A program made the translations under genes and the position numbers. A stretch of DNA of 64,000 nucleotides from Macrostomum lignano. Taxonomy: Eukaryota. Positions 11,531 through 47,990 of this stretch are shown piece by piece (positions within the stretch are counted from its first letter, which is position 1; each line of letters begins with the position of its first letter). The notes beneath the pieces are model-generated. The model saw only the letters and a list, made by a program, of their open reading frames with translations, ran no database searches and had not been told where the DNA came from. The stretch covers positions 124,001 through 188,000 of the forward strand of contig NIVC01002245.1 of assembly GCA_002269645.1 (NCBI GenBank), given 5' to 3'.

Positions 11531-14500
11531 ATGTACTGCGAATCGAACAGGGCAGAGCTCAAATTGGCATTACGAGACGGCGACCTGAAAGCAGCAGAGA
11601 GGCTGCTTACTGTCCAGCCCCATTCTGCTGATGCTGAAGATCCCGATGGAAGCCGACCGCTGCATGTGGCAGCGGCATTCTGCGCTCCTGCTGTGCGGCT
11701 GCTGCTTAAGCACGGCGTCGGGCTCGACTGTCCTTCTGACAAGAAGGTCGGCTCGCCGCTGTTTGTTGCCGTCTTCTGCGACCAGTTGGACGCCGTCGAG
11801 GTGCTGATTCGCGCTGGCGCCGATGTTCATTTTTGCAGCACCGGCTCTCCAGCTCTCTGGGTGCTGGCCGCGGCTTCAAGACTAGCGAAGACACCGAGTG
11901 AGCAGGAGAAGCGCATTTTAAGTCAAATGCGACTCACCCTGACTGAACTGGCCATGCTCAGGGGCCACCGAGAGATACTGAATCTGCTCTTATCGATGGG
12001 CGCGGATTTCACAACAGCAAAGGACAACGGATTTGCAGCGATTCAAATTGCGGCTTTGTGTGGCAGAATGGAACTGACCGACTGCCTGGTTGGAGTGCTT
12101 TTGGAATCGCAAAAGCGGAACGAGCTGTACGCATCACCGCTTCACCTCGCCGCTAAGAGAGGTCTCCTGGAGTTTGTTCGATTTCTAATAAGATCCGGAG
12201 CGAATGTTGATCTTCAGCTCCGCTGCTCAAACGCAACGCCTTTGTACATCGCTGCTCAGCACGGACACGCGGAAGTGATTTCCTTATTAGCTGAGTCGGG
12301 AACGGACCTGAACTTCCAGACTAACAAAGGTCGTGCAGCCTTGCATGCAGCAGCCCAGTCAGGACGTGTCGAGTCTGCGCAAGCGCTCATTAAACATGGA
12401 GCCAACATAGATCTCGGGGACAAGGACGGCTGCACGCCGCTCATCATAGCGGCCCGTCACGGGCACACAGCCGTGATTACTGAGCTCTTGCAGGCAGGAA
12501 TTAAAATTGACCACCAGACTAAATTGGGAGCAACGGCGCTTTTAGTGGCTGCCAAGAATGGCAAACTCGACGTTGTACGCAAGCTGCTAGCATCCAACGC
12601 CAACATTAACCTGGCCGATTGCAAGGGCTTCAGTCCCCTGCATGCAGCGGCACAGAACTCTCAAGCCAACCTTGTCGATCTGCTTGTCGCAGCCGGAGCC
12701 AATATCGACAGCCTGACCAGAGCGGGCGACTCCCCGCTTTGCTTAGCGACCAGTAAGGGCCGCGTAGACGCCACCGTCAGTCTGATTCGTGCCGGGGCCT
12801 GCGGCAACTCTCTTTGGCCGAAGCCGCTATCGTCGCCAATGTTCGCAGCAGCAAAGGGAGGTCACATTCAGGTGATTGAGAAACTGATTGGGGCTCAGGC
12901 GGATGTTGATGTCCAGACAAAAAAAGGATCACCTCTCATGATTGCCGCTAGGAATGGTCATATCGCTGTCGTCGCAAGTCTGGTTCAGGCCGGAGCAAAC
13001 TTGAACCAGCGAAACCGCCGGAAAGAATCTCCATTGCTTGTTGCACTGGAGAACGGCCACACTAAGGTTGCGAAGTTGTTGATCCAGTCGCAGGCAACCA
13101 TAGAGCCTTGGTTGACAGCTCTTGCCATGAGTGCCTTGCCGAGCAGTATCTCTGCATCTGACAGCTCAGACACGAGCCTGATGGATTCTTGCGAATCTTT
13201 GAGCTCCGAAATGAGGCTTGCCGGTTTCACAGCAGCGAACGCCGCAATGCAAAGCAGGATTGCGGCCACCCTAGAATTCATCCAAAAGCAAAGGCTGCCT
13301 TCTGATCAGTTCTCCATCGTTGGTAGCTTCTCTGATGGATGGGGCATGTGCTTTACGCAAAACGATGGAAAGCTGGACCCGGATTCAGACATCGATATGA
13401 CAGCGCTACAGCAAGGCCCTGTGGTGAAAGTCTGCTCCGAACATAGCTATAGCGACGGGCACATCGAGATTGATATCTCAGGTAGGAGTAACCGGTCTAA
13501 TTTACAAACAATCGATCATTATCATCATGCACCCTGTTACTTCCGTTCCAGTTTCTGAGCCAAGTGTCACTCAAAATGGATCAATGCTTCGACCGAATAT
13601 GGACTTTGTGACTGCGTATCCACTCAGTGAGTATCCCACGATCGCTGTGCTGCAGTCTGGCTATCAGTCGTGCATTCCGTCCAACATTCTGAAATCGCTC
13701 GCGGACGAGCTGAAAAACTCGCCATGCCATTTGGTTGCCGCAGCGCCGCCAGGGCTGAGTGGCAAACGAATGCGAGTCAGCACCAACCTGCTTGAGAGGC
13801 GGCTCATGCAGAGCCTAACCGACGAGCAGGGCCAGGTTTTCGTGCTGCTGAAATACATTATCAAAAAAGTAATTTCCGCTAAAGTGAATGGACTGAAAAC
13901 GTACCACGCCAAGAACACTTTCTTCTTTATGCTCGACGGGACGCCAAGAGAACACTGGACTAAAGAGAGTCTTCATGAGCTGGTGAGACGATCGTTGGAG
14001 CTTCTGCTTAAAAGAGGTTTTCACAACACAAGAACTGACTTCTGTTCACCGCATCAGTGCATGCAACACTTTTTCCTGCGAGATGCATTTGTTTATCTGC
14101 ACCGCAATCACCACCCCAAGTCGGAAATCCGAAGAGCCATTGAAGAAGTTATTTGCAATCTTTCTACTGCACTGGAAGAATTTCGACAAGGACTCTGCAA
14201 AAATCCTTCTATGGAGTTCCAGTTTCACCCGTTTCTTCTACTGCCCGTGCTGGAAGAGCGGTCATTTCCTACAGCTGAGCTGCAGTACCACGATACCTAC
14301 GATGTTATCAAGTATGTCCTCTTGTCGCTGGCTGATGACAACTTTGAAAAGACCATCAAAGAGGAAATCAACAGCATACCTGATTGGGCCAGAACTGCTC
14401 GAGAGTGCCTCAGAGCGATGGCGCTCATGAGGACTGGCAAAAGCGGCTATTCACTCGTCGCCCCGGTCAGCACCGTCAGCAAGTCCATCCCGAGCTCGGT

Positions 14501-14963
14501 GGAGGACGTCCTCCGTTATCTTCAGACCAACGACTCAGCTTGGAAATTCTATTTCCGATTTCACAAGAAAGTCGAGTTCAAGTTTCTTCCAGCCTATCTG
14601 AGAGAGATTTTTCCACTGAGTCGGGGAAGTCGCGACCAGGCGAGCTACATCAATTTCGACGCGCTGTCCAAGGCGCTCCGCCTCGAGTTCATTCGAAAAC
14701 AACCGAATGGCAATGAAAAAGCAGCTGAACTCTTCAACACATTTTCTTGGGACTACGGCGATCCCCAGGATCTGGGGCTGTTGCTGCATTACTGCCTGCA
14801 GCACAGCATCAGCAATGAACAGCTAATGGGAGTTTTCGACAGGCGTAGGAAGAGAATCACGGCTGCTCATCTGAGTAGGCTGGTCTCGACTTTATTGGAT
14901 GCTCAGGTAGGCGCTTTTTGTTTAGCATTAATTGGTTTTAAAAACAATTTTCATAGCTCATAA
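11531..14963 (+). CDS. Ankyrin-repeat + cGAS-like (Mab21/cGLR) nucleotidyltransferase, about 1120 aa; exons 11531-13481 and 13552-14963 (possible further donor at 14907)
   Basis: About 13-15 ankyrin repeats (TPLxxAAxxGH...LL..GA), then VGSFSDGWG...DSDID, a third acidic residue in NMDFVTAY, and CHLVAAAP...RVSTNLLERRLM and LKTYHAKNTFF...W...L...CMQHFF (Mab21 C-lobe). The 70-nt GTAGGA...TTCCAG intron joins the two ORF-track frames in frame. Confidence 0.85.
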
Positions 14964-20719: not shown

Positions 20720-21478
20720 ATGCGACCGCTGCTGTTTCTGCTTCTGGGTCTCAAAATTAGTTGCGATGCAACTTGCGACTCTCCGAAAGCGACTTTCCAC
20801 CCGATCTCTGGCGCTGACTGCGTGACGTCCAGCTTCACCCACACCGTGTGGGGCTCGTGCGATCCGCTGTCCTGCAGCCTGCACTGCGCCAAGATGCCGA
20901 ACTGCCGGGCCTTCTCGCTGCCGGATGGCGACTGCCTCTGCAAGCTGTTCCTGTTCGACAAGTGCAGCCACCGAGTGCAGTCAGAGGCCAACTGCACTCA
21001 CCGAGTAACCGTGTACGTGAGATCGCTACCTGGAGTAGCTCCGGGTCGCCTGTGCCCACCCGGATACGAGTACTCTCAGTTCGGAACCTCATACAAGGTG
21101 TCGGCCTCACGTGCGACCAACTGGGCTGACGCTCTCTCCCGGTGCGACCAGGAGACCGGACTGTCGAAGTTCGCGGACGCTCTGGACTCCGACGAGTCCC
21201 GTCACCTGATGTGGATCAAGAACGTGTCGAACATCCCTGTAGAGACTTTGTTTCTGGGTGGCCACCAGATTCCGGGCTCTGCGAGCAGAACGGAAGGCTG
21301 GATCTGGGACGCCTGCAACGAGAGCATCCGGGCCGACGTCTGGGAGCCCGGGAGGCCGAACGATGGGTTGCCGACTCAGGGCTGTGCGGCTGTCTACGTT
21401 GATCACAATACTGGCATCGATGATTCCGGATGCTCTAGCAACCGGAAGTACCTCTGTGAGTGCCTGTCCGTGTTCTAA
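20720..21478 (+). CDS. Secreted PAN/apple + C-type lectin protein, copy 1 (252 aa, single coding exon; 5'UTR intron 20616-20710)
   Basis: Signal peptide MRPLLFLLLGLKISC, PAN-like CSLHCAKMPNCRAFS...C, and CTLD CPPGY...NWADA..C...LFLGG...GWIW...WEPGRPN...C...DD..C....YLCEC. Confidence 0.85.
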   Translation: MRPLLFLLLGLKISCDATCDSPKATFHPISGADCVTSSFTHTVWGSCDPLSCSLHCAKMPNCRAFSLPDGDCLCKLFLFDKCSHRVQSEANCTHRVTVYVRSLPGVAPGRLCPPGYEYSQFGTSYKVSASRATNWADALSRCDQETGLSKFADALDSDESRHLMWIKNVSNIPVETLFLGGHQIPGSASRTEGWIWDACNESIRADVWEPGRPNDGLPTQGCAAVYVDHNTGIDDSGCSSNRKYLCECLSVF

Positions 21479-27257: not shown

Positions 27258-28019
27258 ATGCTGCGACCACTGCTGTTTCTGCTTCTGAGTCTCAAAATTA
27301 GTTGCGGTGCAACTTGCGACTCTCCGAAAGCGACTTTCCACCCGATCTCTGGCGCTGACTGCGTGACGTCCAGCTTCACCCACACCGTGTGGGGCTCGTG
27401 CGATCCGCTGTCCTGCAGCCTGCACTGCGCCAAGATGCCGAACTGCCGGGCCTTCTCGCTGCCGGATGGCGACTGCCTCTGCAAGCTGTTCCTGTTCGAC
27501 AAGTGCAGCCACCGAGTGCAGTCAGAGGCCAACTGCACTCACCGAGTAACCGTGTACGTGAGATCGCTACCTGGAGTAGCTCCGGGTCGCCTGTGCCCAC
27601 CCGGATACGACTACTCTCAGTTCGGATCCTCATACAAGGTGTCGGCCTCACTGGTGACCAACTGGGCTGACGCTCTCTCCCGGTGCGGCCAGGAGGCCGG
27701 ACTGTCGAAGTTCGCGGACGCTCTGGACTCCGACGAGTCGCATCACCTGATGTGGATAAAAAACGTGTCGAACAGCCCTGTAAAGACTTTATTTCTGGGT
27801 GGCCACCAGATTCCGGGCTCTGCGACCAAGACGGAAGGCTGGATCTGGGACGCCTGCAACGAGAGCATCCGGACCGACGTCTGGGAGCCCGAGAGGCCGA
27901 ACAAAGGATTGCCGGATCAGGGCTGCGCGGCTGTCCACGCCAATCACAAGATCGGCGTCGATGATTCCCAATGCTCCTACAGCCGGAAGTACCTCTGCGA
28001 GTGCCTGTCCGTGTTCTAA
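27258..28019 (+). CDS. Secreted PAN/apple + C-type lectin protein, copy 2 (253 aa)
   Basis: Paralogue of 20720-21478 with an intact ORF. Confidence 0.85.
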   Translation: MLRPLLFLLLSLKISCGATCDSPKATFHPISGADCVTSSFTHTVWGSCDPLSCSLHCAKMPNCRAFSLPDGDCLCKLFLFDKCSHRVQSEANCTHRVTVYVRSLPGVAPGRLCPPGYDYSQFGSSYKVSASLVTNWADALSRCGQEAGLSKFADALDSDESHHLMWIKNVSNSPVKTLFLGGHQIPGSATKTEGWIWDACNESIRTDVWEPERPNKGLPDQGCAAVHANHKIGVDDSQCSYSRKYLCECLSVF

Positions 28020-30400: not shown

Positions 30401-30408
30401 CTTACTAT

Positions 30409-31243
30409 TGTCATGAATGTGTTATGACAGTGTGCTCTTTGTTTAGTTGCTGCACCGGGCCAGTGGGCCGTCCTCTCCCCCTCCCCCCTCCTTAGATATT
30501 TTCTGACTCACTCACCTGCACTTCTGCGCGTGCGTACCCCTCCCCTCCCTGCCTAGACCTTTTCTGTTGAGTCAACCCCCCCATGCTCTGCGTGCGACCC
30601 CCCCCCCTGTGCGACCCCGCCCCATTTTTGTTAGCTTTGCTGCCCCGCCCCTGTTTGTGATTGGCTGCCAGTCCCAGTCTGCCGTGCTGCGCCCCGGCGA
30701 TTGGCTGGTACAGCTCATGCGTTGCCTTGGCTGATGTCTAAGTCCCCTTTTCTGCCTTTATCCCGCGCCCTCGACCCCCAGTTTGCTGCCTATTTTTTCA
30801 GACCCCCTTGAGACCCCATTCTCGTCGTCTTCGTGGCTCCTCGGCGATTGTGCCAGTGTTGGTTGCTGAATTGCTATTCCTCGCAGAATTGCTAGACAAA
30901 TATATAAGTAAAGAATATCGAGATCACCACTGCTCTGACGGCGCTGTTTCTTGTACGACTGAAATCGCGGCTGGTAAGCCTTCCAATTTGTACGTCATTT
31001 GGGTCTGCATCTGTACTAGGCACCTTAGAGGGATTAAGTGCGTCGTACGCCGGTCCCACCCCAAGCAGCTCTGCGTCGTACGCGAGTCTGTAGGCTGTCG
31101 TGCGTCGTACGCTCGAGCAGCCTAGTCCCGACGGACACCGCGTCGTACGCGTGTCAGTGGAGGACCGCAGCCAGGGTCAGTACACGAACCCGGGTCTGGG
31201 AAAGGGGCACGAAAGGACCGAGCCCTTGAGCCCCATCATCACA
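30409..31243 (+). repeat. 5' LTR (835 bp)
   Basis: TGTCATG...CATCACA. By eye it differs from the 3' LTR only by one extra C in each of two C homopolymers. TATA-like TATATAA at 30901; donor CTG|GTAAGC at 30974. Confidence 0.95.
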
Positions 31244-31246
31244 AAT

Positions 31247-31263
31247 TGGCATCCTTGGTGGGA
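31247..31263 (+). promoter_or_regulatory. Primer-binding site
   Basis: TGGCATCCTTGGTGGGA 3 nt after the LTR, complementary to a tRNA 3' CCA end. It loosely resembles tRNA-Asn; identity is tentative. Confidence 0.7.
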
Positions 31264-31351: not shown

Positions 31352-32405
31352 ATGGATGCTGGAGGTGCTGCTGGAGGTGCTGCTGGAGGTGCGGCTGGGG
31401 TGCGACTGGAGGTGCTGCTGGAGGTGCTGCTGGAGCCTTTGGTGTTAATGATCTGGTCGCCGCTTGACTGCCCAGATTCAGCAGAACATGCAGCAAGCGG
31501 GGGCTCTCAGGATTCAGAGGCCGGTGAAGTATGCTCCTGGAATGAATTTCGTGAAGTGGTTGAGGCTCTTCGTAGCTTATTGCGATGCCATGCAGATTCC
31601 GATGCAGAATCGGCGCGCTCAGTTGCTCAGCAATCTAGACTTCAGCACATTCCAAGTTGTCGACAACATGAACCTTGGGGACGACTTGCAGTTCGAAGAA
31701 TTTACCCAGGCCTTGAGGGATAGGTTCACTATGCACCGTACCGTCGTCGACTACCGCACAGAACTGAGCAATAGAGAGCAGAGCGAGAAGGAGTCGGTAG
31801 AAGATTTCTCTGAAGCTGTGATTGAGTTGGTCGCAAACGCCTTTCCTGATGCGCCTGCCGATGTGCGCGATGATCTTGCGAAAGAGCGATTTATGCGAGG
31901 CGTCCGTGCGGGGGTGGCTGTGCGGGAGCGATTGTACATGAGCCAGCCGGAGACCTTAGCAGACGCGATGCGTCTAGTGCATCAGCTGGAAGCGGCGGTT
32001 AGGGCAAGTCACGGTCCACCAGGTCAGGGATCAAAAAGAGCTACCGTCTGTGCTGTCACAGCTGAGACTAGAAATGAGGCTTCCGAAAGCAGTGAGGTCG
32101 AGATGCTTCGAAAACAGCTTGCGGCCATGGAGATGCGAATGAAAGAGATGGAGGAGCGGAGGTCTGGAGAAGCGGAAGAGCCGACCCCGGCGAGTCGGAA
32201 GGCTGTGCAGTGTTTTTCGTGTCGAGAGTGGGGCCATATCTCATCAAAGTGTCCCAAGAAAACCAGCCAGACAAGTGGAAACGGGAAATCGCCAGTACGA
32301 TGTCACAAGTGCAACGGTGAAGGCCACCTATCCTTCAAGTGTCCGAAGTCGGGAAACGGGCCGAGGGGACCGACCGGGGAGAGTCGGGACCCTGCCAGGA
32401 AGTGA
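31352..32405 (+). CDS. Gag (probable start at ATG 31352 with two 1-nt frame breaks near 31399 and 31463; continuous from 31464)
   Basis: QxxxESVEDF capsid motif and two CCHC knuckles, CFSCREWGHISSKC and CHKCNGEGHLSFKC. Confidence 0.85.
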
Positions 32406-35400
32406 AGTCTCCCAGGAGCGAGGAACCGGGGTTGCTCACTAACTCTGTAAATAAATCCAAGTGCGTCTCTGGTGATGGGAATTCAAAGAGCAACCTGGTT
32501 CATGAGGCGTGTTCGTCGGTATCAACGGAGCCTCTGACAGTTTTTATTTCCGGTGCGGTTTCCGGCAAGCCAGTGGCTCTGCTGTTAGACAGTGGTGCGA
32601 GTGTGTCAGTGCTGAGCTGTGATGTTTTCCTGAGGCTGCCGCAAGAGGTGAGGGAGAGACTGACTGCAATGGACGGTTCCCTTTCAACGGCCAATGGAGG
32701 TGCGATGAGGATGAGAGGCTGCATTGTGCTGGACGTGGAGATTGGCGGCGAGCGGTGGTCAGCGAATTTCTTCGTAGTGGACGGATTACGTTATGATGTC
32801 ATTCTCGGGTCCGAATTTTTCAAACAGCATCGTTGCGTCATCAACTATTCAGAGTTTGTCTTTCGAGTGGGCGATGTTAGAGTTCCGATACGGCAGAAAG
32901 GCGAGCTGCCCGTGGTGTGTCGAATCAAAGCCGAGACAACGGTATTCCTGGAACCGGCGCAAGAAGTGATCATGCCAGCCAGGGTAGAGAAAAAGGGCGC
33001 AAGAAACTGCGGATCTGTCGGCATAACGGAAGAAAAGTCAGTGAAGGCCTCTGAGAAGGATTTGGCGCTGGCTCGAGCTCTGGTAGCGCCGGCGTGGATG
33101 GACGGCTGCCGATGAGATTGCTGAATACGTCCAGTTGTAGGAAGAGGGTCAAGAAAGGAGAGACGATTGGCTGGTTTATTCCTTTGGAACCGAACGGAGG
33201 TATCAACGTGGTGCGCTTGGACGACGACGTAGAGGCCAAGAATGAAGCGGAGGCATGGGACCCGATCGAAGAATTCCGCGAGTGGGGTTCGTGTGGCCTG
33301 TCGGAGGAGGAGGAAGCCGACTTCAGGGAGCTGATTTCCCAACATCGGGCTGTCTTTGCTAAGGACTCCAAGGATCTGGGCTGTACGACGGTGATGAAGC
33401 ACGAGATCGACACTGGAGATGCCAGGCCTGTGAAAGAGGCGGCGAGGCGGATTCCCCCGTACCTGCGGCAGGAAGTGGACAAGGAGTTGGATGACTTGCT
33501 GGAAGCTGGGAGAATCAGCGAGGTTCAGTCCCCATGGTGCTCTCCGGTGGTGTGCGTGAAAAAGAAGGACGGTTCCCTGAGGTTCTGTTGTGACTACCGG
33601 AAACTGAATGAAGTGACCAAGAAGGATGCAGTGCCGTTGCCCAGGACAGATGACCTGTTGGAGAGCCTAGGCGGTGCCAAGATTTTTTCGACCATGGACA
33701 TGCAGTCGGGATACTGGCAGATGGCGGTGGAACCCAGCGACAGACTGAAGACGGCCTTTGGCGTTTCACACCGGGTACAGCAGTACGCCTGGAACGTTAT
33801 GCCATTTGGATTGACAAATGCACCGGCTTCATTCAGCCGGCTAATGAATGTGGTGTTGGGGAAGTTGTGCTGGAAGACGTGTTTGGTGTATCTGGACGAC
33901 CTGCTAGTGTGGTCACGAACGGTGGAAGAGCACCTGGAACGGTTGCAAACGGTTTTTCGACGGTTGCGAGCAGCGAACATCAAACTGAAGCCGAAGAAGT
34001 GCGCATTCCTGCTGAAGTCAGTGACCTTCCTGGGACACGTAGTGTCAGCTGATGGGATCGCCACGAGTCCAGAAAAGATTGCCGAAATTCGTGACTGGCC
34101 AACTCCGAGGAATGTGAAGGAAGTAAGGTCATTCCTGGGACTGTGCGGGTATTACCGGCAATTCATCGCAGATTTTTCCCGCATTGCTGAGCCGATGCTG
34201 CGACGGACCCGACATGATTGCCCGTGGAGCTGGGATGAGGAGTGTCAAGCCGCATTCGAGGCCCTGAAGGAAAGGTTGCAGGGATCTGAGGTCATGGCGT
34301 TTCCAAACTTTGCGGAGGACGCTGGAGAATTCGTTTTAGACACAGACGGTAGCACAAAAGAAGGAATTGGCGCTGTGCTTTCGCAGGTGCAGAAAGATGG
34401 GAGTGAGAAGGTAATAGCTTACGGAAGCAGGACGTTGTCGCGAGAAGAACGGAATTACTGCACGACACGAGTCGAGTTGCTGGCCGTGGTGTTTTTCGTA
34501 CAGAAGTTTCGTTATTACTGATGGGGCGAGAGTTTCTAGTGCGCACCGATCACAGCAGCTTGAAGTGGCTGCATTCGCTGCGGGACGTAGAAGGACAACT
34601 GGCCAGATGGCTGGAACTCTTGGCTCCGTACAGGTATCGCATCGAACATCGTCCGGGAGTGAAACATCAACACGCGGACGCTCTCTCCAGGAAGCCACGT
34701 CGGCGCCATCAAGGAAGCGAGAGTTGTCCTGGATGTGCACAAGAGCAGATCGGCGTGAACGCGTTGGGATTGCAGAAGTGGACCTCGGAGGAGATCAGAG
34801 AGAGCCAGAAGATGGACAGCGACATTCGTCAGGCGATGGAGCTGCTGGCTCACGGCGACGGAGAGATAACCGAAGAGCATTTGCGGCGCATATCACCGAC
34901 GGCAAGGAGGATTGTCGAAAGACGTCGTGACCTTGAGGTGTCGGACAGTGAGGTGTTGCTGTGTCATACGGCAGTAGACGTCAGCCGCAAGTGGTGTTGC
35001 CACGGAATATGCTGAGAGCGGTGCTGGAAGAAGCTCATGGTGGACGGAGTGGAGGGCACGTTGGGATTTTCAAGACCAAGGAGAAGGTGCGGCAATCGTT
35101 TTGGAGGCCGGGACTTGGCCGCGAGGTCGAAGAGCACGTAAAAGCCTGTTTGGACTGCACCAAGGCCAAAGCTGGCAAGAAACCAATTGCACCGATGGAG
35201 CCGATTCCGAGTTCAAGCCCATTCGATATCGTGATGACGGACGTCATCGGGCCGCTGCCACGGAGCAAGAAAGGAAACTTCTACATCCTCACGGTGCAAG
35301 ATGCGTTCTCAAAGTGGCCTGACGCTTATGCCATCCGGAACCAGAAGGCGGCAACGATCGCAAGGGTGCTATTCGAACGCTGGATTGCAAATCACGGGTG

Positions 35401-36542
35401 CCCCCGGGTACTTCACTCAGACCAAGGAAGGAACTTTGAGTCGGGGATCATCAGGAAGCTGTGCGAGCTGTTGGGTGTGAAGAAGACCAGGACGAGCGCC
35501 TACCACCCGAGTGGCAACGGACAGGTGGAACGATTTAATGGGTTCCTGAAGAACAGTTTGCGCACGTATCTGGTACAGAAGGGTCAGAACGCCTGGGAGG
35601 AGTACCTGCCAAGTGCATTGATGGCTTATCGATCGACGGTCCAGGCGTCCACCGGTTACACGCCCTACTACATGCTGCATGGTCAGGAGATGCCACTGGG
35701 ATTCGAACCAGAGGACCTTAGGCGAAAGACGGACAGCTGTCCCTTGTTTGTGCAAGAGATCAAGCAGAACCTGCTTCATGCCCATGAACGCATTCGAGAA
35801 GGACGCGAGACGGTTCAGCGACGGCAGAAAATGAATTACGATCGGAAGTGAAGGGCAAAGCGATTCAGAAGGGCGACTCTGTCTTGCTGTACTATCCGTG
35901 CTTGGAGATGGGAGAGAAAAGCAAGTTCATATCAACTGGCGCGGCCCAGTGAAGGTCCTGGAGAAGCTGTCAGATGCGTTGTACCGAGTGCAGGATCCGA
36001 CACAGCCGCAGAAGACCAAGGTGGTGCACTTCAACAATCTCCGGCCGGTTCAGGGCCAGACGGAGGCGGCAGACGATCAAGAGACAGGAGAGGAAATTGG
36101 GAGGGCCAGTTCGGGAAAAACCAGGCCGCGACGTGGTAATTCCGCTGCTGGACGAAGCCGAAGGCAGAGAGTGCAACGGGGCGAGACCCAGAGGTGGACC
36201 GCAGCGCGAGGGCCGCAGGACCAGGAATCCGAGCAGGAAGATGAAGAGTTTGAAGATCTTCAGCTGCGGTTTCAAGATCCAAGAGATCACGCTCCACCGG
36301 ACACCCGAAATCTGGCCGAGGACCGTGAGCCCGGACCTGAGCGTCCAGAAGCAGACGATGACGAAGAAGAGCACTTTGATGAGGCGCGGTACGACGAGGA
36401 GCAAAACGAAGAGGATGAGGCAGAGCCGAACGACGCCAACGTACCCGAGCAAGAAGTGAGGACGGCACAGGAGGAAGCAGGGCGACCAAGACGTCTGCGG
36501 CGACCGCCAGATCGGTTTGGGGTCCCGGTGTACCACTACTGA
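32339..36542 (+). CDS. Pol polyprotein (PR-RT-RNaseH-INT), interrupted by five single-base frame breaks as sequenced
   Basis: LLDSGAS protease; PWCSPVV, LRFCCDYRKLN, MPFGLTNAP and YLDD RT; LDTDGS...E..Y...ELLAVV RNaseH; HHCC and D-D-E (TDVIGP, SDQGRNF, GQVERFN) integrase; GPY/F-like WRGP motif. Confidence 0.92.
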
Positions 36543-36641
36543 AGAAGGGTCCGGTGTACGGCGCTTGGATAGCCAAGGGGGAAGGGAGGTACATGTCGTG
36601 CGTGTCTCATTGCTCATCGGAGTTAGGCCGGACTGTTACAG

Positions 36642-37628
36642 ATGGCGGACCTCTACGAGTGTCTTGGAGTGCAGCTGTGGGCGTCTGCGGCACAGATTCG
36701 GAAAGCGTTCTACGGTCGAGCACGCGAACTGCACCCTGACAAGAGCGCAACAGAGGAGACGCGGAAGAGATTCCAGGAGTGCGAAGAGGCGTACCGAATA
36801 CTGTCGTGTCCGTTCCTTAGAAAGCTGTACGATATCTTTGGAAATGCTGTTCGTGACCGGGATGAGATGCTTCGGCTCGCAGAAGGAATGTTAGAGGATG
36901 ACGACATGCCCGACGATCTCCGAGAAGAGATAGAAAGACTACAAGAGAGCGACCGATTAGCTGAGGAGGCGTACGAGAGAGAACAGGCGAGGAGGGATGA
37001 GGAGCACGTCAAGATGGAGGCAAGTGAGGAGGCCTCAGACGATGAGCAGGACGAAGAGATGAACGAGGCGAGTGAGACACTGCCAGAGGAGTACGAGGTC
37101 GAGAAGGTCTTAGGAGTACGAGTTACGGAGCGAGGAGCGGAGTATCTGCTGCAGTGGGCCGGTGTAGAGGAGCTTGAGACGTCATGGGAAGCGGAGGAAG
37201 ATTGTGCCGGATGTAGAAACCTGATTGAAGAATATCTGCAGAGAGCGTACCGGCTTCAGACAAGACCGTGCCGACCAGTGACCGTCGCGGAACTGGAGAA
37301 CGTAGGACCCAGTCGGAAGAAACTGCACCAGGCAATGCGGAAGGGCGATCCGTGGGGCATCTTTGAGGTGCTGCTAGCCCTGAAGGGGAAGTGCGCCACT
37401 GCCTCGGTGGATTTCAAGGAATTCGGTCCGGAGTTGATGCTGCAAATCCTGGGCTACTTAGAGCGAGACGGTCGCAAGTATCCGGGGCACGGAGTTCGTC
37501 GGTGGAGTCGCCAAGCGTGTCAAGCTGTCTACATGTCGGTGATGGTGGTGTTCCCGCTGTTTGACCTGCGACGCCAGGGTTTGGTCCTGGGTGCCCTCCG
37601 TAGGCTGTGGGATTCGTGCTCTGACTGA
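36642..37628 (+). CDS. Retrotransposon ORF3: DnaJ J-domain + acidic linker + chromodomain + unknown helical C-terminal domain (328 aa)
   Basis: DLYECLGV..ASAAQIRKAF...ARELHPDK...RFQECEEAYRILS....RKLYD.FG (J-domain, HPD intact); EYEVEKVL..R....EYLLQWAG.....SWEAEED...LIEEY (chromodomain). Intact and located between pol and the PPT. Confidence 0.92.
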   Translation: MADLYECLGVQLWASAAQIRKAFYGRARELHPDKSATEETRKRFQECEEAYRILSCPFLRKLYDIFGNAVRDRDEMLRLAEGMLEDDDMPDDLREEIERLQESDRLAEEAYEREQARRDEEHVKMEASEEASDDEQDEEMNEASETLPEEYEVEKVLGVRVTERGAEYLLQWAGVEELETSWEAEEDCAGCRNLIEEYLQRAYRLQTRPCRPVTVAELENVGPSRKKLHQAMRKGDPWGIFEVLLALKGKCATASVDFKEFGPELMLQILGYLERDGRKYPGHGVRRWSRQACQAVYMSVMVVFPLFDLRRQGLVLGALRRLWDSCSD

Positions 37629-38192: not shown

Positions 38193-38204
38193 AGGGGGAG
38201 GGAG
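38193..38204 (+). promoter_or_regulatory. Polypurine tract
   Basis: AGGGGGAGGGAG immediately before the 3' LTR TGTC. Confidence 0.9.
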
Positions 38205-39037
38205 TGTCATGAATGTGTTATGACAGTGTGCTCTTTGTTTAGTTGCTGCACCGGGCCAGTGGGCCGTCCTCTCCCCCTCCCCCCTCCTTAGATATTTTCT
38301 GACTCACTCACCTGCACTTCTGCGCGTGCGTACCCCTCCCCTCCCTGCCTAGACCTTTTCTGTTGAGTCAACCCCCCATGCTCTGCGTGCGACCCCCCCC
38401 CTGTGCGACCCCGCCCCATTTTTGTTAGCTTTGCTGCCCCGCCCCTGTTTGTGATTGGCTGCCAGTCCCAGTCTGCCGTGCTGCGCCCCGGCGATTGGCT
38501 GGTACAGCTCATGCGTTGCCTTGGCTGATGTCTAAGTCCCCTTTTCTGCCTTTATCCCGCGCCCTCGACCCCCAGTTTGCTGCCTATTTTTTCAGACCCC
38601 CTTGAGACCCCATTCTCGTCGTCTTCGTGGCTCCTCGGCGATTGTGCCAGTGTTGGTTGCTGAATTGCTATTCCTCGCAGAATTGCTAGACAAATATATA
38701 AGTAAAGAATATCGAGATCACCACTGCTCTGACGGCGCTGTTTCTTGTACGACTGAAATCGCGGCTGGTAAGCCTTCCAATTTGTACGTCATTTGGGTCT
38801 GCATCTGTACTAGGCACCTTAGAGGGATTAAGTGCGTCGTACGCCGGTCCCACCCCAAGCAGCTCTGCGTCGTACGCGAGTCTGTAGGCTGTCGTGCGTC
38901 GTACGCTCGAGCAGCCTAGTCCCGACGGACACCGCGTCGTACGCGTGTCAGTGGAGGACCGCAGCCAGGGTCAGTACACGAACCCGGGTCTGGGAAAGGG
39001 GCACGAAAGGACCGAGCCCTTGAGCCCCATCATCACA
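38205..39037 (+). repeat. 3' LTR (833 bp)
   Basis: Direct repeat of 30409-31243, followed by the TSD CTAT. Confidence 0.95.
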
Positions 39038-39929
39038 CTATAATATAGAAATAAACAAAAATTTCTGTATTGGTTTTATCCTAGTATGCTACTGGCTATA
39101 GTCTTTGTTTTGGCGTCCTTGCGTTTCTTCACAGCGGCTTTCTCTCAACATCGATTTCTAACATGCTAAGAAGACATGCCTAGCGTGCTCTTTTGACCCT
39201 TTCTCACTAACTCTCGTGCCGGGTCTGCAGTCGGCTTGCACTCTCAGACGCCATAACTCAATTCTGACCGAATCAATGACCTCGGTAACCACCTGCAGTA
39301 AAATCAAGTGCTTCAAGTGGATCTGAGCCGCGATTGCAAAGCCAAAGGAGGTTTCAACTCTGCGACAGAACGGAGCAGATTTTGCGTTCCCTCTTACTTC
39401 TGTAATATTCTGAAAAATACTCTCTTTTGAGGCCTTCACAACAGCCCTCATTCGCAGTGTTCAGAGTGGGGACGCAGCTCCTGAAAAAGTGTAGCCCAGG
39501 AGCATCAAACCAGCCAGTTGCTAGGGTGGTTGGCTCTGCTCTCGGGGGTGGCTGAAGAGGGTTTTAGCGAATTGGTTGAACCAGACGCGGCCTCCCCTTT
39601 CCTAGGCTTCTGTCTTTCGCATTACTCCCTGTCCTTCCCCGTCAACGGTGCATTCTGCTCGTCTCTGGCGGCCCGGGCCTTCTCGGGTCATTTCGTAAAG
39701 TAGTACCGAGTTTTAAAAAGTTAGAAAGATAATGAAAGGCAGTTTTGAAAACATTGCATGTAAAAGTGTAAAAGATGAAAAGAGAACAGAAAGAAAATTT
39801 AAAAAAATGTGATGCGATGCATTTGGATTGGGGCGTAGAAAGCTAAGATAATAACTGCGCTTATTACTTGCAGTAGTTCGAGCTGGTTTTTAGTAATCGA
39901 TTGATGATCAATCAATTCAGCTGCAAGTA

Positions 39930-47231: not shown

Positions 47232-47990
47232 ATGCGACCGTTGCTGTTTCTGCTTCTGGGTCTCAAAATTAGTTGCGGTGCAACTTGCGACTCTCCGAAA
47301 GCGACTTTCCACTCGATCTCTGGCGCTGACTGCGTGACGTCCAGCTTCACCCACACCGTGTGGGGCTCGTGCGATCCGCAGTCCTGCAGCCTGCACTGCG
47401 CCAAGATGCCGAACTGCCGGGCCTTCTCTCTGCCGGATGGCGACTGCCTCTGCAAGCTGTTCCTGTTCGACAAGTGCAGCCACCGAGTGCAGTCAGAGGC
47501 CAACTGCACTCACCGAGTAACCGTGTACGTGAGATCGCTACCTGGAGTAGCTCCGGGTCGCCTGTGCCCACCCGGATACGAGTACTCTCAGTTCGGATCC
47601 TCATACAAGGTGTCGGCCGAACCTGTGACCAATTGGGCTGACGCTCTCTCCCGGTGCGGACAGGAGGCCGGACTGTCGAAGTTCGCGGACGCTCTGGACT
47701 CCGACGAGTCACGTCACCTGATGTGGATCAAGAGCGTCTCGAACATTCCTGTAGAGAGTTTGTACCTGGGTGGCCACCAGATTCCGGGCTCTGCGACCAA
47801 GACGGAAGGCTGGATCTGGGACGCCTGCAACGAGAGCATCCGGGCCGACGTCTGGGAGCCCGAGAGGCCGAGCAGTGGGTTGCCGATTCAGGGCTGTGCG
47901 GCTGTCTACGCCAATCACAAGATCGGCGTCGATGATTACGGATGCTCTAGCAACCGGAAATACCTTTGCGAGTGCCTGTCCGTGTTCTAA
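47232..47990 (+). CDS. Secreted PAN/apple + C-type lectin protein, copy 4 (252 aa)
   Basis: Intact paralogue. Confidence 0.85.
   Translation: MRPLLFLLLGLKISCGATCDSPKATFHSISGADCVTSSFTHTVWGSCDPQSCSLHCAKMPNCRAFSLPDGDCLCKLFLFDKCSHRVQSEANCTHRVTVYVRSLPGVAPGRLCPPGYEYSQFGSSYKVSAEPVTNWADALSRCGQEAGLSKFADALDSDESRHLMWIKSVSNIPVESLYLGGHQIPGSATKTEGWIWDACNESIRADVWEPERPSSGLPIQGCAAVYANHKIGVDDYGCSSNRKYLCECLSVF

Follow-up and report, generated by a model that had tools for sequence, protein, structure and literature searches.

ORF3, a J-domain gene encoded by one clade of Ty3/gypsy retrotransposons in Macrostomum lignano

An 8.6-kb Ty3/gypsy LTR retrotransposon of Macrostomum lignano, young and bounded by its LTRs, encodes behind pol a gene, here called ORF3, which our sequence comparisons identify as an old, element-encoded J-domain gene of one Ty3/gypsy clade. 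The copy described here is a chromodomain variant within a broader family that shares a J-domain, a linker and a tail. It lies in the window, by which we mean the whole stretch of 64,000 nucleotides that was analysed (contig NIVC01002245.1). A preliminary description had read a separate, uninterrupted ORF after the pol stop, and this is what we find: pol ends at 36542 and ORF3 occupies 36642-37628 (+). The features of the element, in window positions, are as follows.

30405..30408, +: target-site duplication CTAT (left), identical to the 4 bases at 39038-39041
30409..31243, +: 5' LTR (TG...CA), from comparison with the 3' LTR; donor-like site near 30973/30974
31247..31262 (end approximate), +: PBS-like stretch starting with TGG, read in the sequence
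31488..32405, +: gag with two CCHC knuckles (ORF and Pfam)
32321..36542, +: pol (PR-RT-RH-IN), in several frames in the window copy, no chromodomain at the integrase end
36630..36641, +: putative splice-acceptor-like AG directly before the ORF3 start, predicted from the sequence
36642..37628, +: ORF3, accessory gene of 328 aa
36648..36833, +: J-domain, aa 3-64, HPD at aa 31-33, then the family-specific motif LSCP(F/Y)xRxLYD (Pfam, alignment)
36927..37091, +: acidic linker with VKME (psi-K-x-E-like) at aa 123-126, read by eye with no control
37092..37244, +: HP1/Swi6-like chromodomain, aa 151-201, cage positions Y151/W172/V175 (Pfam, PDB search)
37305..37619, +: conserved helical tail of five helices with a basic GRR-W loop, of no known family (prediction, alignment)
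38193..38204, +: polypurine tract (PPT)
38205..39037, +: 3' LTR; a contig of run X2 branches exactly behind 38767, at a donor-like site
39038..39041, +: target-site duplication CTAT (right), identical to the left copy

The TG..CA LTRs, the target-site duplication, the PBS-like site, the PPT and the order of gag followed by PR-RT-RH-IN are those of a Ty3/gypsy element. The two LTRs are identical at 833 of 835 positions, both differences being gaps, and a 3' UTR of about 565 nt separates the ORF3 stop from the PPT. The pol frame of the window copy is broken near 33.1, 34.5, 35.0, 35.85 and 35.93 kb; because the dominant contigs of four sequencing runs do not have these breaks, they are private to this copy or assembly errors. 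Two of the four runs also contain a contig that joins both flanks without the element, and therefore an empty allele or homeolog exists. That the integrase ends without a chromodomain, as had been described, is supported by the intact pol of another natural family copy, which ends in Integrase_p58_C with no Chromo match. None of five uninterrupted pol proteins matches Chromo at E<=0.5, so the element does not have an integrase fusion of the chromovirus type.

Membership of the heat-induced M. lignano LTR families that bear heat-shock elements (HSEs), which share a genome with this element (main text of PMC12801592), was rejected because no canonical HSE was found in the element. The one match in the 64-kb window lies outside it, and the positive controls of the search (L111, L112 and the host DnaJ locus L068) all match. 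The gene ids Mlig001265 and Mlig020785 are not in the heat-stress DE table, and Mlig001265 does not occur in the papers searched.

The window also holds other genes. At 11531-14963 (+) an ankyrin-repeat ORF (675 aa) overlaps an ORF of 478 aa with a weak Mab-21_C match (E 9.7e-5, below the cut-off), the two possibly representing one frameshifted ankyrin plus cGAS-like gene. Four intronless copies of a gene of about 252 aa (20720-21478, 27258-28019, about 42567, and 47232-47990) are 91-99% identical and encode a secreted-looking protein, one copy having a weak C-type lectin match.

Profile searches bore out both domains that had been recognized in ORF3 by inspection, the Pfam matches to DnaJ (aa 3-64, E 4.7e-16) and Chromo (aa 151-201, E 1.4e-12) each lying above the curated cut-off. 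The HPD (aa 31-33) is set in a four-helix J fold, as in J-domain proteins of class C type, and helix II is off the usual basic pattern, with YGR for YRK/YKR. A Foldseek search with the model of the whole protein returned J-domain rows only, with an rmsd of about 1-2 A and none at E<=0.001. Among ten aligned full ORF3 proteins, which are about 25-45% identical, DnaJ matches 10/10 and HPD is kept in 10/10; all ten share HPDK, the post-J motif and certain tail residues (R, L, G, D) without variation.

The helical tail of about 110 aa proposed earlier was also supported, structure prediction giving a helical bundle (pLDDT 83.6, pTM 0.75). Against PDB sequences its best match had an E of 0.0046, to designed helical proteins, and there was no solved natural domain at E<0.001; searches of Pfam, NCBIfam and PHROGs gave nothing consistent, and the ESM Atlas gave no usable match to the whole ORF3 protein. 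The first two tail helices may resemble TFIIS-N/LEDGF-IBD bundles, which we take as a lead only. By eye, ORF3 shows neither a signal peptide nor a fusion domain or membrane anchor, Pfam finds DnaJ and Chromo only, and the protein is thus not a membrane fusion glycoprotein of the errantivirus env kind. From the alignment and the prediction, the conserved core of ORF3 is a J-domain, an acidic linker and a new helical tail, and the family defines a new helical domain of about 110 aa, with modules that swap around a fixed core.

To place ORF3 in its genomic context, 40 loci around weaker matches were compared. An ORF3-type J-domain is present in 29, and in 28 of these RT or integrase lies directly upstream on the same strand, the exception (L037) having the last pol codons only. 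ORF3 is therefore not a one-off capture. The remaining 11 loci are not behind pol, and five that were translated resemble ordinary host J-proteins. The J-domain matches L053/54, L059-62, L064-68 and L096-99 were set aside as non-ORF3, and six of the set-aside loci, when translated, had other architectures. No ordinary host gene with the full-length ORF3 architecture was found, nor was there a tail-bearing host gene among the matches examined.

The 29 loci comprise groups A, A2, B, H, C, D, E and F, to which further searches added G2 and E2. They represent at least six ORF3 lineages (A/A2, B/H, C, D, E/E2 and F/G2) whose RT-RNase H is 56-65% identical to that of A, and in A, B, C, D, E, F and G2 the gene is enclosed by an LTR pair. 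An RT tree was built from 22 natural copies, all from the M. lignano genome and with no Mag or CsRN1 RT; in it the ORF3 lineages form a clade (98/97) that includes the family N1, itself the sister of F/G2 (100/99). The nearest labelled relative, a Mlig-id38 copy with 53.6% identity in RT-RNase H, falls just outside this clade in a group with support of only 85/80; Mlig-id38 is labelled Gmr1/Osvaldo in the main text of PMC12801592.

Twenty further loci were chosen by RT likeness. Three have the J-domain and tail and one the tail alone, and eight appear truncated or interrupted. The five N1 loci in this set (L078-80, L084 and L090) have no J-domain, tail or other trace of ORF3; four of them are bounded by LTRs, which are 97-99.6% identical. 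Because a family nested in the clade has near-identical LTRs and no ORF3, the element may not need the gene, or may be served by it in trans. L081-L083 are deletion derivatives bounded by LTRs that are 99.3-99.9% identical, and of the F/G2 ORF3 they retain the 3' part alone.

Several other arrangements were seen at these and related loci. At L057 (G000 C506; protein P0007), RT-RNase H and a family C ORF3 have been joined in frame by a deletion, giving an open frame of 1099 aa that is annotated as a gene. At L096-L099 (G000 C575, C3488 twice and C1744; also C1901), five places in all, a long ORF of up to 1449 aa begins with a J-domain, the 1190 aa that were scanned match no further Pfam family, and an unrelated gypsy element lies upstream in two of the five. 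The pol frames of families B and D (L039-L042, L046) are about 1570-1600 aa long, owing in family B to a proline-rich tandem repeat before the protease. An A-like element at L087:2100-4100 is split by AT-rich ORFs that, judged by eye, resemble a large DNA transposon or virus. Other multi-copy ORFs with weak chromodomains occur in G000 (for example C84:1076653, C4619:14450, C219:430096; frames of 387, 419, 637 and 370 aa), which suggests further chromodomain-bearing mobile families.

Relatives of ORF3 also occur beyond this assembly. A profile of the tail searched against 1.84 billion representatives gave nine matches: two from M. lignano, six others (four Logan, two JGI) and one repeat protein (P0013), which was rejected as a false match. 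Four of the six Logan/JGI proteins have a J-domain, a fifth has one through a cluster member, and one is partial. By alignment, P0009, P0010 and P0012 are like lineage D, P0014 is like B and P0002 like A; because these outside proteins resemble particular lineages, the comparison suggests that the ORF3 lineages are older than the separation of their hosts. A metagenome scan kept 80 loci of 325, all with a plain J-domain, and the tail profile matched 0/80.

A genome search with family A gave at least 137 matches, a lower bound for which 122 of 238 candidates were scored. Seventeen family A copies of ORF3, the window copy included, span the full length without a stop and are at least 99% identical. 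They do not count as 17 independent insertions, because the assembly is redundant and the animal is a hidden allotetraploid (main text of PMC12801592). The closest protein record is the gene model Mlig001265. An LTR primer published for M. lignano has 48 matches in the assembly, and the control has 0. L035 and L036 are A/A2 recombinants, and a junction of this type within the ORF3 tail would be compatible with a loose end at 37461 in runs X1 and X15.

The dN/dS below 1 anticipated for an element-borne accessory gene was observed. By the Nei-Gojobori method it is 0.03-0.24 for 28 family A loci against the window copy, comparisons that share this one partner and are therefore not independent; the window ORF3 and L003 differ by 10 synonymous changes and 1 non-synonymous change. 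Between A and its sister A2, dN/dS is 0.24 in the chromodomain and 0.29 in the tail, and elsewhere it is 0.18 (B/H), 0.25 (within D) and 0.28 (E/E2). These codon comparisons indicate that ORF3 is under purifying selection and, with its place after pol in 28/29 loci, uphold the earlier view of it as a stand-alone gene of the element.

The joint presence of J-domain and chromodomain, which had been taken as the defining unit, did not prove to be conserved. The J-domain and tail occur in all lineages, and Chromo matches 2/10 of the aligned full proteins, the chromodomain being found only in A, in the decayed A2 and in P0002 (76% identical). A single gain in the A lineage is the simplest reading, the tree leaving the order among A-E unresolved. 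The best PDB matches of the chromodomain are Swi6 and HP1/CBX1/3/5, and the closest of 15 aligned host chromodomains are 31-36% identical, too distant to name a donor. In the structure model of ORF3 this part has a pLDDT<50. Alignment to Swi6/HP1 places the cage at Y151, W172 and V175, in agreement with the earlier reading that two of three positions are kept. The third residue is V in A, L in P0002 (Y/W/L) and F in A2 (F/W/F), the full aromatic cage thus occurring only in the decayed sister; because of the V in A and the L in P0002, methyl-lysine reading by the window copy is doubtful.

In lineage F/G2 (L052, L055, L091-L095) the tail is extended by a TatD-like domain (E 1e-8). The LHP, HSR and ETD positions of YjjV are replaced and GE alone is kept; with most metal ligands gone, identity as a TatD nuclease was rejected despite the profile match. 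The module has a dN/dS of 0.13, and the F/G2 copies are broken. The chromodomain and TatD families both bind chromatin or nucleic acid.

The acidic linker carries short motifs of two kinds, SIM-like (psi-psi/x-psi-S/D/E-acidic words, resembling SUMO-interacting motifs) and SUMO-acceptor-like (VKME or VKQE). SIM-like words such as IIISDDE, VVISDDE and YITISDSDEE were read by eye, with no shuffle control, in 12 of 15 groups or proteins, and such words arise easily in acidic linkers like that of ORF3. The motif is weak in A2 and absent from A and P0002, which carry VKME or VKQE.

An AG lies 0-1 nt before the ORF3 start in eight of nine groups (not E), the spacers being otherwise unalike, and F and G2 have no ATG at the position homologous to the start. 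Exactly behind the donor-like site of the LTR (38767), one contig of run X2 ends and another enters foreign sequence. Together, the AG and the break at the donor-like site would fit splicing in the style of env. The contigs of four runs, which are not on record as RNA, span the whole element and drop rare forms, and are thus evidence neither for nor against splicing; they hold no splice joint to 36642 and cross that point unbroken. The loose end behind the LTR donor matches 0/209 loci. The sequence that branches off in run X2 at the 38767 GT is not in the window or the fetched loci, and possibly represents an LTR-driven chimeric transcript.

In a full-text literature search, no LTR element turned up for which a J-domain ORF is described; such a description could stand in Repbase, in Dfam or in the earlier classification of M. 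lignano LTR elements. A 2026 preprint (10.64898/2026.09.14.751395) deals with host J-proteins that act with a chromatin remodeller. DnaJ is not mentioned in the main text of PMC12801592 or PMC13524379 (the former has 0 occurrences of DnaJ, chromo, ORF and J-domain), and it has 0 occurrences in PMC5408684, PMC9289625 and PMC11963269. These last three papers describe extra ORFs between pol and the 3' LTR in bdelloid rotifer elements (PMC5408684) and Retand (PMC11963269), and a Ty3/gypsy element of orchids with an m6A-demethylase domain in its extra ORF (PMC9289625). As in the ORF3 elements, a separate ORF has been captured in the env position, in several families; ORF3 differs in its cargo, a J-domain co-chaperone with a novel tail and a swappable chromo or TatD module. 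Accessory ORFs in LTR retrotransposons are therefore already known, and the J-domain cargo with its novel tail is the new part.

The chromodomain of gypsy elements normally lies at the integrase C-terminus, according to the main text of PMC13524379, and the chromoviruses and chromodomain-bearing errantiviruses treated there are, like our element, Ty3/gypsy elements that encode one. Unlike that of chromoviruses, the ORF3 chromodomain is HP1/Swi6-like, lies in a separate ORF and occurs in one lineage only, in a clade near a Gmr1/Osvaldo family.

ORF3 shares its position after pol with the env gene (also an ORF3) of errantiviruses, which is expressed by splicing, and the AG before its start suggests spliced expression here too; unlike env, the window ORF3 has no signal peptide, fusion domain or membrane anchor that could be seen. 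Polyomavirus T antigens are viral proteins in which an HPD J-domain is joined to docking modules, and in this sense a parasite-encoded counterpart of ORF3, which differs in having no LxCxE (by eye) or helicase, in a tail that is unrelated as far as tested, and in belonging to another class of element. VANC of VANDAL, a DNA-binding anti-silencing factor of plant DNA transposons, likewise is an accessory gene directed against host silencing, the role proposed for ORF3; it differs in that ORF3 would be a chaperone adaptor rather than a DNA-binding factor, and no sequence relation was found.

We tentatively consider, at somewhat less than even confidence, that ORF3 is most likely a nuclear adaptor that would bring Hsp70 to silencing complexes on the element, because both add-ons and the linker motifs suggest a link with chromatin, SUMO or nucleic acid. 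A spliced sub-genomic RNA would probably serve for its translation as a protein of its own, which would be imported into the nucleus by means of the basic tail loop. The protein would dock on the host silencing apparatus at or near the chromatin of the element by way of SIM-like motifs (most lineages), the HP1-like chromodomain (A) or the dead TatD fold (F/G2). Once docked, the protein would trigger Hsp70 with its J-domain, so that the repressor complex bound there would be remodelled or released; polyomavirus T antigen acts in a comparable way on Rb-E2F with a J-domain and a docking motif. The tail may be a client-binding or nucleic-acid-binding module.

The adaptor role is supported by the position behind pol in 28/29 loci, inside LTR pairs, and by the HPD in 10/10 proteins. 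The dN/dS below 1, the lack of a signal peptide or membrane segment by eye, the HP1-like chromodomain with its full cage in A2, the SIM-like motifs read by eye in 12/15 and the origin of the add-ons in families that bind chromatin or nucleic acid would all be consistent with it. Against it, the chromodomain is missing in most lineages and its cage is broken in A, which also has no SIM-like word; the nested family N1 has no ORF3, no spliced joint to 36642 was seen, and helix II deviates with YGR. A more general proposition is that a clade of animal LTR retrotransposons encodes an Hsp70-recruiting counter-silencing factor that docks on SUMO- or H3K9me-marked repressors, its targeting module (SIM, HP1-like chromodomain or dead TatD) being swapped in an arms race; this we regard as possible but on balance doubtful. 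The results suggest that ORF3-bearing elements borrow the host Hsp70 machinery, possibly for escape from silencing.

Two alternatives are each unlikely in our estimation. ORF3 could be a cofactor of integration or of the pre-integration complex, in the manner of LEDGF tethering, with the tail binding integrase, the chromodomain or SIM acting as tether, and Hsp70 disassembling the particle or post-integration complex. This would agree with a compact helical tail (pLDDT 83.6) and with an integrase that lacks the chromodomain which gypsy elements normally carry at its end, ORF3 supplying one; however, the tail has no sequence likeness to a solved natural domain at E<0.001, and the reader domain is missing in most lineages. 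ORF3 could also be a private cytoplasmic chaperone for Gag/Pol folding, particle assembly or uncoating, the add-ons being secondary. Retroelement and virus particles generally depend on Hsp70/Hsp40, the J-domain and tail are the universally kept parts, and the tail co-diverges with each family. Such a role, however, would not explain why an HP1-like chromodomain is under selection (dN/dS 0.24 against A2) or why SIM-like motifs recur, and N1 copies with near-identical LTRs do without ORF3.

We consider it quite improbable that ORF3 blocks small-RNA silencing, either by diverting Hsp70/Hsp90/J-protein from PIWI/Argonaute loading, which is chaperone-dependent, or by shielding the element RNA with the dead TatD as binder; the basic loop of the tail and the conservation of a TatD-like module without most metal ligands (dN/dS 0.13) would suit such a role, which leaves the chromodomain unexplained. 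That ORF3 is a passively carried fragment of a host gene with no role for the element is very improbable: N1 without ORF3 and the lack of proof of expression could be cited for it, yet it is largely refuted because dN/dS is below 1, with open frames and an excess of synonymous change (10 vs 1 for L003), conservation across lineages whose synonymous sites are saturated, and no tail-bearing host gene among the matches.

To our knowledge, the steering of host Hsp70 by a parasite's own J-domain gene comes from true viruses alone, LTR retrotransposons seldom carry extra genes, most of which are env-like or enzymatic, and the means by which animal retrotransposons counter chromatin silencing are a largely open field. 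The competing roles of ORF3 are directly testable on the isolated protein because M. lignano permits transgenesis and LTR reporters (main text of PMC12801592). Clade-wide selection on a J-domain gene would mean that the element gains from steering the host Hsp70 system. If ORF3 does act in counter-silencing, a retrotransposon would have an anti-silencing mechanism that works through a chaperone, and its host would be an animal in which transgenesis and RNAi are available.
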